NCBI RefSeq assembly: GCF_003334785.1
Contig: NZ_QOWV01000004.1
Reading direction: 5' to 3' (one strand)
Length of the DNA: 64,000 nucleotides
Origin: Escherichia coli
GTDB lineage: Bacteria > Pseudomonadota > Gammaproteobacteria > Enterobacterales > Enterobacteriaceae
A model generated the notes under the pieces. It searched no databases and was not told where the DNA came from. It saw nothing but the letters and a program-made list of their open reading frames with translations. Positions 23,094-28,041 of this stretch are shown here, in pieces. Positions within the stretch are counted from its first letter, which is position 1; each line of letters opens with the position of its first letter. Made by a program: the position numbers and the translations under genes.

Positions 23094-25766
23094 TTAAGCA
23101 ATGGTACGTTGGATCTCGATGATTTCGAATACTTCGATCACATCGCCAGTGCGGACGTCGTTGTAGTTCTTAACGCCGATACCACATTCCATACCGTTAC
23201 GGACTTCGTTAACGTCATCTTTGAAGCGGCGCAGGGACTCCAGCTCGCCTTCGTAGATAACCACGTTGTCACGCAGAACGCGGATCGGGTTGTGACGTTT
23301 AACCACACCTTCGGTAACCATACAGCCTGCGATGGCACCAAATTTCGGCGATTTGAACACGTCACGAACTTCCGCCAGACCGATAATCTGCTGTTTCAGT
23401 TCCGGAGACAGCATACCGCTCATCGCCGCTTTCACTTCGTCAATCAGGTTATAGATGACGGAGTAGTAACGCAGATCCAGGCTTTCCGCTTCAATCACTT
23501 TACGTGCAGAGGCATCAGCACGTACGTTAAAGCCAACCAGGATGGCGTTGGACGCCGCAGCCAGGGTGGCGTCGGTTTCGGTGATACCACCTACGCCAGA
23601 ACCGATGATCTTCACTTTAACTTCGTCAGTAGACAGTTTCAGCAAGGAGTCGGAGATCGCTTCGACAGAACCCTGTACGTCTGCCTTCAGGACGATATTC
23701 ACTTCGTGAACTTCGCCTTCGGTCATGTTGGCGAACATGTTCTCGAGTTTAGATTTCTGCTGACGCGCCAGTTTAACTTCGCGGAATTTACCCTGACGAT
23801 AGAGTGCAACTTCACGCGCTTTCTTCTCGTCACGTACAACGGTAACTTCATCACCCGCAGCCGGTACGCCGGACAGGCCGAGGATTTCCACCGGAATGGA
23901 CGGACCCGCTTCCAGCACTTCCTGACCCAGTTCGTTACGCATCGCACGAACACGACCGTATTCGAAGCCACACAGAACGATATCGCCCTTGTGCAGAGTA
24001 CCTTCACGTACCAGAACGGTAGCAACCGGACCACGACCTTTATCGAGGAAGGATTCGATAACCGCACCGCTCGCCATACCTTTACGTACCGCTTTCAGCT
24101 CCAGAACTTCCGCCTGCAGCAGGATAGCGTCCAGCAGTTCATCGATACCGGTACCCGCTTTCGCAGATACGTGTACGAACTGGCTTTCACCGCCCCACTC
24201 TTCCGGCAGGATGCCGTACTGGGAGAGTTCGTTCTTAACGCGATCCGGATCAGCTTCTGGTTTATCGATCTTGTTCACTGCAACCACCACCGGTACCTGC
24301 GCCGCTTTCGCGTGCTGGATTGCTTCGATGGTCTGCGGCATCACACCGTCGTCGGCAGCAACAACCAGGACTACGATGTCCGTTGCCTGCGCACCACGAG
24401 CACGCATTGAAGTAAACGCGGCGTGCCCCGGGGTGTCCAGGAAGGTGATCATGCCGTTTTCAGTTTCAACGTGGTATGCACCAATGTGCTGGGTAATGCC
24501 GCCCGCTTCGCCAGAGGCCACTTTCGTTGAACGAATGTAGTCCAGCAGAGAGGTTTTACCGTGGTCAACGTGACCCATGATGGTCACAACCGGCGCGCGC
24601 GGTTCAGCCGCAGCACCCGTGTCACGGTCGCTCATTACCGCCTCTTCCAGCTCGTTTTCACGACGCAGGATAACTTTATGGCCCATCTCTTCAGCAACCA
24701 GCTGTGCGGTTTCCTGATCGATAACCTGGTTGATGGTTGCCATTGCGCCCAGTTTCATCATCGCTTTGATGACCTGAGAGCCTTTAACCGCCATCTTGTT
24801 CGCCAGTTCGCCAACGGTGATAGTTTCGCCGATCACAACGTCACGGTTAACGGCCTGAGCAGGCTTCTGGAAGCCTTGCTGCAGCGAAGAACCTTTACGT
24901 TTTCCGCCTTTACCGCCACGTACTGCTGCGCGTGCTTCTTCACGATCAGCTTTTGATTCAGCGTGTTTGTTGCCTTTCTTCGGACGCGCTGCTTTCGCGT
25001 TACGACCACGGCCACGGCCGCCTTCGACTTCACGATCGCTTTCGTCTTCTGCCTGGCGAGCATGTTGAGAAGTAGTGACGTGATAATCGCTGGAATCTTC
25101 AGTCGGTTCCGCGTTATCAGTCCATTTGTTTTCTTCCGCCATACGACGTGCTTCTTCAGCAACGCGACGTGCTTCTTCTTCGAGTTTACGACGCGCTTCT
25201 TCTTCAGCTTTACGCTTGAGCTCTGCAGCTTCCTGCTCACGGCGGGCTTTTTCAGCCTGGGCGTTTTTAGTCATATCGTCTTGTTGATTGCTCACTTTGT
25301 CTTTTTCCGCAGCTTCACGTTTCGCTTGTTCAGCAGCTTCACGCTTAGCTTGTTCTGCGGCCTCACGTTCAGCTTTTTGTTGCGCCTCGCGTTTAGCCGA
25401 TTCTTCTGCCTCACGACGGGCTTGCTCTTCCGCTTCACGCTGCGCTTGCTCTTCCGCTGCAAGGCGTTCAGCCTCTTGCGGATCGCGTTTCACAAAGGTG
25501 CGTTTCTTGCGGACTTCGATTTGTACCGATTTGCTTTTTCCACCGGTACCAGGAATGTTAAGGGTGCTGCGTGTTTTACGTTGCAGCGTCAATTTGTCCG
25601 GGCCTGAATTTTTCTGATTCAGGTGGTCAATCAAAGTCTGTTTCTCTTGTGCAGACACAGAGTCGTCAGCAGACTTCCGGATACCTGCATCAGCAAATTG
25701 CTGTACCAGGCGTTCCACGGAGGTCTGTCGCTCTGCGGCCAGCGTTTTAATCGTTACATCTGTCAT
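23094..25766 (-). CDS. infB: translation initiation factor IF-2, 890 aa
   Basis: 890-aa ORF; GTP-binding motifs [17 protein letters not shown]; N-terminal charged repeat region; internal in-frame GTG (codon 158, 25293-25295) and ATG (codon 165). Confidence 0.97.
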
Positions 25767-25790
25767 GCTGTTCCTTCCTGCTACAGTTTA

Positions 25791-27278
<1,488 letters not shown>

Positions 27279-27758: not shown

Positions 27759-27812
27759 GCCCACCCCCAAGACATAAAAAAAGGGCCTAAAGCCCAGTTA
27801 TTCTGTAGTCAG

Positions 27813-27840
27813 ATAACAAAAAACCCCGATAAATCGGGGC
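27813..27840 (-). terminator. intrinsic (partial) terminator downstream of metY
   Basis: Hairpin ccccgataaatcgggg followed on minus strand by a U-run (plus-strand aacaaaaaa). Confidence 0.6.
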
Positions 27841-27964
27841 TTTATATAACTGAACCCTATAACCGCAACTGCGGTCTGGAGCACTTTCCAGAAGGATTTT
27901 TTCAAATCCCACTACGAAGGCCGAAGTCTTCACAGTATATTTGAAAAAGGACTCTAAGGGAAAG

Positions 27965-28041
<77 letters not shown>

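Follow-up and report, generated by a model that had tools for sequence, protein, structure and literature searches.

The window analysed here, a stretch of 64,000 nucleotides of Escherichia coli DNA, is colinear with positions 1026886-1090885 (reverse strand) of the E. coli K-12 MG1655 record NZ_CM184145.1, from which it differs at 7 positions. Within it, infB, the gene for IF2, lies on the minus strand and, by gene order and RefSeq annotation, belongs to the operon metY-rimP-nusA-infB-rbfA-truB-rpsO, in which the rimP leader and tRNA-Met are located upstream. Residues 1-240 of the encoded protein are identical to the full-length E. coli IF2 chains in the PDB. Many E. coli genomes, those of K-12 and BL21(DE3) among them, match a 601-nt stretch around the repeats and internal starts at 100% identity, and each of the 5,426 complete E. 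coli genomes searched has this stretch annotated as infB. When Rfam families and structured RNAs were sought, none was found inside infB, and matches were restricted to the flanks (naRNA4, the rimP leader, the S15 leader, SraG and tRNA). The locus is the E. coli IF2 alpha/beta/gamma system itself, nucleotide for nucleotide, and as such is an already known, textbook feature. The features considered are collected in Table 1.

Table 1. Features of infB and of the opposite strand, in coordinates of the window (AF2, AlphaFold2; TRF, Tandem Repeats Finder)
Feature	Position	Strand	Basis or remark
infB coding sequence, IF2, 890 aa	25766..23094	-	ORF list; RefSeq annotation of the identical K-12 stretch
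IF2-1/alpha (full-length) start, ATG	25766..25764	-	Codon 1 of infB
IF2_N (N1) compact subdomain, aa 1-51, IF2-alpha only	25614..25766	-	Pfam PF04760; PDB 1ND9 matches aa 2-50
IF2_assoc, aa 56-94, predicted beta-hairpin	25485..25601	-	PF08364; AF2 strands 58-71 and 79-92
Predicted long alpha-helix 1, aa 96-161, about 9.9 nm	25284..25481	-	AF2, pLDDT about 87-93 for most residues
Repeat block 1, seven 24-nt/8-aa units, aa 98-153	25308..25475	-	TRF, repeat search, periodicity; whole-unit gain and loss
Internal translation-initiation region, codons 147-161	25284..25328	-	Synonymous-entropy minimum; mRNA-level constraint
IF2-2/IF2-beta start, GTG, codon 158	25295..25293	-	Sequence, conservation, literature
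Predicted inter-helix break, aa 162-166	25269..25283	-	AF2 non-helical; pLDDT <50 at 162-164
IF2-3/IF2-gamma (beta') start, ATG, codon 165	25274..25272	-	Sequence, conservation, literature
Repeat block 2, aa 170-213, looser 7/8-aa period, KAEEEARR-like	25128..25259	-	TRF, lag 7/8 periodicity
Antisense ORF	22695..24410	+	Codon-for-codon antisense frame
Antisense ORF	24561..24956	+	Codon-for-codon antisense frame
Antisense ORF, 214 aa, by-product, not gene	24963..25607	+	Codon-for-codon antisense frame
Antisense ORF, 109 aa, across block 1, plausibly a by-product of the GAA/GCN/CGT-rich repeat	25288..25617	+	Second frame
Antisense ORF over nusA	25623..27092	+	Codon-for-codon antisense frame

The degenerate tandem repeats that a preliminary description had reported in the N-terminal region of infB were recovered by Tandem Repeats Finder as period-24 arrays at 25301-25375 and 25402-25458 and, further downstream, as period 21/24 arrays at 25131-25214. 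A repeat search returned six successive copies in which the register is kept at a spacing of exactly 24 nt, and the octads of block 1 follow the consensus E-Q-A-K/R-R-E-A-A/E in perfect register. The two near-repeat DNA motifs singled out earlier recur on the plus strand at multiples of 24 nt, GCTTCACG at 25312, 25336 and 25432 and CTTGTTC at 25325 and 25349. Between aa 98 and 153, lag-8 identity is 0.67, a value that none of 5000 composition-preserving shuffles reached at any lag. Thus, block 1 is repetitive far beyond chance, in agreement with the preliminary description, the 52-residue peptide of which matches aa 104-155 exactly (25457..25302). The extent assigned to the repeat at that time (codons about 100-155) was slightly too narrow, although the repeat is indeed present there: the regular array occupies aa 98-153, and a looser block is found at aa 170-213. 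The lag 7/8 periodicity of this second block was matched by 93 of 5000 shuffles. Block 2 lies downstream of both internal starts, within the second predicted helix, and is kept in all isoforms.

At the DNA level, the units of block 1 are degenerate, with 9-21 of 24 nt in common. Positions at which two units carry the same amino acid use the same codon in 40 of 97 cases, compared with 47.6 expected from infB codon usage, and synonymous diversity over units 1-6 is average in an alignment of 80 Enterobacteriaceae sequences (0.70 versus 0.74 bits). Because the units do not share codons more often than expected and synonymous diversity is average, the array is taken to be old and to be maintained by selection that acts on the protein and not on the DNA or RNA. 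Recent duplication of units was rejected on the grounds that inter-unit codon identity does not exceed the codon-usage expectation; the exception is units 6 and 7, identical at 21 of 24 nt and the only ones that look recently homogenised.

Pfam contains no family that covers aa 96-216, which lie between the N-terminal domains listed in Table 1 and a second IF2_N match at aa 314-364. AlphaFold2, run with a 35-sequence alignment and returning a pTM of 0.30, predicted two long helices in this interval, helix 1 and helix 2 (aa 167-216), separated by a short break; codon 158 falls near the end of the former and codon 165 inside the break. Opposite-charge i/i+4 pairs number 17 in helix 1 against 7.6 expected and 20 in helix 2 against 7.9 expected, an excess equalled in at most 1 of 5000 shuffles, and like-charge i/i+4 pairs are absent from both. 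Charged residues make up 50-58% of the helices and hydrophobic residues 3-10% (3% in helix 1). A coiled coil was rejected as an explanation for these segments because the hydrophobic core of a heptad pattern is absent: in the best register, hydrophobic residues occupy only 2 of about 19 a/d positions in one segment and 3 of about 15 in the other. Published NMR work is said to have described residues 98-157, within the region of residues 51-157, as helical, with a sequence that is repetitive and hydrophilic, and published circular dichroism work, together with NMR, reportedly supports a helical state of the IF2 linker region.

Taken together, the predicted structure and the charge pattern suggest that the block 1 array would form a semi-rigid, charged helical spacer between N1 and the body of IF2. 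ER/K single alpha-helix spacers occur in myosin VI, myosin X and caldesmon, and the predicted helical repeat of IF2 resembles them in every feature that can be tested from sequence, namely the share of charged residues, the excess of opposite-charge i/i+4 (and i/i+3) pairs, the lack of like-charge pairs, the scarcity of hydrophobic residues, the missing heptad core and the length of the predicted helix, which runs without interruption. It differs from them in that the IF2 unit is rich in Ala and Gln (27% Ala), is octad-periodic and is bacterial, and in that the IF2 helix is a prediction.

Three in-frame starts have been published for infB, AUG1, GUG158 and AUG165, together with N-terminal proteoform evidence. 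The preliminary description had noted the latter two codons in frame and had named them as the known IF2-beta and IF2-gamma starts; both lie where it placed them, and the identification agrees with the published start set and with the published knock-outs g474c and t494c, which abolish IF2-2/3. As mapped here, g474c alters the third base of codon 158 and t494c the second base of codon 165. Internal-initiation peaks, which had been proposed as a check, exist in published Ribo-RET data at the known infB internal site. On the basis of these Ribo-RET data, the proteoforms and the start-codon mutants, GUG158 and AUG165 are used in vivo as internal starts. A study from 2025 described IF2-alpha, -beta and -gamma, of which alpha alone contains the 157-residue Domain I that binds NusA, and N1 is the reported NusA-binding part of this domain. 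In terms of the features described above, the short isoforms keep helix 2 but are without N1, the hairpin of IF2_assoc and nearly the whole of helix 1.

Conservation of the two internal starts was assessed in Enterobacteriaceae in the narrow sense. GTG is found at codon 158 in all 80 distinct sequences (81 of 81 aligned rows, the extra row being a near-identical E. coli sequence). Other conserved Val codons mostly vary synonymously, with codon 85 as an exception. ATG is present at codon 165 in 73 of the 81 sequences, and its loss in 8 of 81 species implies that certain lineages can do without the third isoform.

The synonymous-codon entropy of codons 147-161 is 0.20 bits, compared with a mean of 0.74 bits, and is the lowest of the first 255 codons; in the 80 Enterobacteriaceae sequences, none of 5000 within-amino-acid permutations gave a minimum as low. 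Of 5426 E. coli genomes, 5300 carry exactly the same 66-nt sequence around the starts. Some 45 nt around GUG158 are thus under constraint at the level of the mRNA across Enterobacteriaceae. When local folding of the infB mRNA was predicted, codons 158-167 were the most accessible of the 872 codons considered, with codon 165 ranked first and codon 158 in the 97th percentile; these values are thermodynamic predictions for naked mRNA, whereas ribosomes engaged in IF2-alpha synthesis pass through the region in vivo. Predicted anti-Shine-Dalgarno pairing amounts to -3.5 and -3.1 kcal/mol at the internal starts versus -6.5 kcal/mol at the main start.

The number of units in block 1 was compared both between and within species. 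Nearly all Enterobacteriaceae have seven units, and eight, one complete octad more, are found in Phytobacter, Kosakonia, Siccibacter, Mangrovibacter and one Enterobacter sp. Within E. coli, the 5,426 complete genomes were searched with a 211-nt query and then with baits of variant sequence. The query revealed one genome with 24 additional nucleotides and one lacking 96 nt, and the completed search identified alleles of six units (IF2 of 882 aa, five genomes), eight units (898 aa, six genomes) and nine units (906 aa, one genome), as well as a three-unit allele (858 aa) in one genome. For this last allele, a bait with the N68 sequence did not discriminate, because normal genomes also reach 100% through matches in two pieces. 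Variants therefore account for at least 13 of the 5,426 genomes (about 0.24%), a lower bound given that only some alleles were baited and that arrays of 4, 5 or at least 10 units lie outside the search, and at least 99.7% keep seven units. Variation of repeat number between strains, which the preliminary description had suggested looking for, thus exists but is rare.

The 24-nt insertions are of two kinds, with either unit 6 or unit 7 duplicated, and the 24-nt deletions are likewise of two kinds when classified by junction. The nine-unit allele also duplicates unit 2, and the 96-nt deletion of the three-unit allele runs between units 2 and 6 at the common CGTGAAGC. Given the different junctions, at least six independent events are implied. 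All of the length events found are in frame, with the GTG and ATG intact; no out-of-frame variant was seen among them. Exact matches to the variant proteins were present on public contigs, 398 for the 898-aa form, 353 for the 882-aa form, 44 for the 906-aa form and 1 for the 858-aa form, and the variants are not assembly errors. Overall, the array is polymorphic in E. coli but strongly held at seven units.

Long ORFs on the plus strand extend across infB and into nusA, and the preliminary description had attributed those across infB to the composition of the repeat. A stop in the codon-for-codon antisense frame requires TTA, CTA or TCA in the sense frame. Among the 98 Leu and Ser codons of infB, TTA and CTA do not occur and TCA occurs 4 times, leaving just 4 stops in the antisense frame across the gene; nusA has 2 such codons in total. 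The longest antisense ORF has 438 codons, compared with a mean of 427 after synonymous permutation and 151 with uniform codon usage. Given that permutation with infB usage reproduces the ORF length, its cause is the codon bias that runs through the whole of this highly expressed gene. The earlier attribution hence fails for the largest ORFs, and only the 109-aa ORF is plausibly due to the repeat itself. Although ORFs of 214 and 109 aa are present on the opposite strand, there is virtually no chance that either of them is a real overlapping gene: codon usage is sufficient to account for ORF length, an NCBIfam search of the long plus-strand ORFs gave zero matches, no promoter-like sites were found for them, RefSeq annotates nothing at their positions, and their translated products mirror the repeat and are of low complexity. 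Antisense genes were rejected for the three long plus-strand ORFs on the NCBIfam, promoter and permutation evidence. Where genes are highly expressed, as infB and nusA are, long antisense ORFs are a consequence of codon usage, and reporting them as candidate genes is unwarranted.

The observations on infB can be explained by the following model, which we regard as very probably correct: the N-terminal octad array serves as a charged helical spacer, after which independent initiation at GUG158 and AUG165 gives IF2-beta and IF2-gamma. Here, the seven degenerate 24-nt units encode octads rich in E, A, R, K and Q and, with block 2, would give two long charged helices of ER/K type, each probably monomeric. 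Helix 1 and N1, which are confined to IF2-alpha, would together provide a semi-rigid spacer or tether from N1 to the rest of the protein. Ribosomes initiate independently inside the ORF near the predicted helix break, yielding IF2-beta and IF2-gamma devoid of Domain I. For this, 30S subunits would load separately on a short, conserved stretch of mRNA, rich in A and predicted to be unstructured, that would reach from about 30 nt before GUG158 to about 10 nt after it. Recruitment of ribosomes at this stretch may be driven by accessibility, with weak Shine-Dalgarno help. Change in array length is rare and confined to whole units, and would arise when the units most alike in sequence recombine out of alignment or slip.

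One alternative explanation, in which the array acts as RNA, for instance by offering a purine-rich platform (standby or enhancer) that feeds ribosomes to GUG158, is suggested by the GAA/GCN-rich composition of the array and by the last unit (codons 146-153), which falls in the synonymously constrained window. Units 1-6, however, show average synonymous diversity, and the predicted accessibility peak lies outside the array. Furthermore, IF2-2/3 were still expressed in a published deletion that left 32 nt upstream of the IF2-2 start. This result, together with the natural three-unit allele, implies that the upstream array is dispensable for internal initiation, and a role as RNA is thus very unlikely. 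A contingency locus, in which a slippage-prone array would frequently switch copy number to vary IF2-alpha, could draw on the existence of three-, six-, eight- and nine-unit variants of at least six independent origins and on their clustering at units 6 and 7, the most similar in the array. Such loci have near-identical units and change copy number frequently within a species, and neither was found here. The near-fixation of seven units in the complete genomes, the constancy among genera, where nearly all have seven and a few eight, the degeneracy of the units, which disfavours slippage, and the lack of out-of-frame variants among those found make this reading extremely improbable.

Single alpha-helices are commonly scored as disordered. 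This bears on the reading in which the charged region is intrinsically disordered and undergoes RNA-dependent, cold-induced phase separation instead of forming a helical spacer. The region is scored as disordered by disorder predictors in a 2025 preprint, according to which the whole IF2 N-terminal region is intrinsically disordered and promotes RNA-dependent condensates. The same preprint concedes predicted helical stretches and reports them as consistent with spectroscopy, and the confident AlphaFold2 helices (pLDDT about 90 at aa 100-150) and the highly non-random ER/K i/i+4 pattern also argue for helix. Disorder in place of a helical spacer is consequently possible but unlikely. Given that single alpha-helices are so often scored as disordered, the two views are compatible.

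When the helical spacer with internal starts is set beside known systems, the closest is the tandem translation of E. coli infB into IF2-1/alpha, IF2-2/beta and IF2-3/gamma (beta'), with which the locus shares the gene, the codon numbers and the nucleotides, with zero differences. Other internal starts in E. coli, such as those of clpB and mrcB and the many detected by Ribo-RET, likewise allow one gene to produce both a full-length isoform and one truncated at the N terminus. By comparison with these, the internal starts of infB are two in number and close together, at a distance of 7 codons, and the calculated Shine-Dalgarno pairing is unusually weak. In Bacillus subtilis, where infB gives alpha and beta forms, and in other genera, several IF2 isoforms similarly arise from one gene by internal initiation. 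To our knowledge, the IF2 N-terminal regions of B. subtilis and other genera cannot be aligned with the enterobacterial octad array. What is added here to the known picture is modest, consisting of an allelic series of repeat lengths, a localised synonymous constraint and an accessibility maximum, all of which fit the existing model.

Among the repeat-length alleles, those encoding the 898-aa and 882-aa proteins are each carried by hundreds of public contigs. It is rather improbable that the octad array is a naturally length-tunable ruler whose variant alleles are adaptive and not neutral accidents. If this were the case, units of about 1.2 nm would alter the reach of N1, and with it of NusA binding, in IF2-alpha only, leaving beta and gamma untouched, and the variants could adjust transcription-translation coupling or the responses to cold and DNA damage. 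The natural repeat-length alleles provide a ready-made series for asking whether the length of the spacer matters, and the mRNA-level constraint on about 45 nt around GUG158 may be useful to those working on the IF2 isoforms.

The gene for the initiator tRNA-Met, metY, lies within the window, and sequence comparison with the K-12 MG1655 record (NZ_CM184145.1) revealed G rather than A at position 46 of this gene (window 27995). G here marks the tRNA-fMet1 type and A tRNA-fMet2, the latter being a peculiarity of K-12. Given that position 46 is G and not the A of K-12, the sequence argues that the window is probably derived from a strain other than K-12 itself, even though merely 7 differences were observed in 64 kb, the remaining six being located at 902, 8144, 8651, 26129, 53632 and 60821.

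Within infB, the gene for IF2, codon 85 (Val, window 25512-25514) was GTC in all 80 Enterobacteriaceae sequences compared, whereas other conserved Val codons of infB varied freely between synonyms in this set. This synonymously invariant codon is located outside the internal-start region (GTG158/ATG165). AlphaFold2 predicted a confident two-stranded β-hairpin (pLDDT ∼76-91) for residues 58-92 (window 25491-25595), coincident with the Pfam domain IF2_assoc; published accounts treat this stretch of IF2 as flexible linker sequence or as disordered.

A long ORF was also observed antisense to nusA. Stops in this frame require TTA, CTA or TCA sense codons, and of the 495 codons of nusA only two are of this kind, a single TTA and a single CTA. 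The ORF has the same cause as the codon-for-codon antisense ORFs over infB. Rfam matches in the regions flanking infB included naRNA4, a REP-derived nucleoid-associated RNA family. For rbfA, the RefSeq ATG is 6 codons downstream of the TTG in the ORF list, which is a trivial annotation difference.

Features in the window near infB
Feature	Coordinates	Strand	Remarks
tRNA-Met metY	27965..28041	minus	
naRNA4	23007-23077	-	Rfam match; infB-rbfA spacer
SraG	20979-21150	+	Rfam match
S15 leader	21380-21494	-	Rfam match
rimP leader	27776-27876	-	Rfam match
ORF antisense to nusA	25623-27092	+	489 aa; codon-for-codon antisense frame
rbfA, ORF list	22529-22948	-	TTG start; 139 aa
rbfA, RefSeq	22529..22930	-	ATG start; 133 aa

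Three of the 13 E. coli genomes found to carry a variant number of infB repeat units (24 nt, usually seven) belong to one series of human isolates. Isolates N10 (NZ_CM165902.1) and N25 (NZ_CM165897.1) carry 8 units each, and N68 (NZ_CM165878.1), from CSF, carries only 3. The occurrence of three variants within one series may reflect a lineage or sampling effect.
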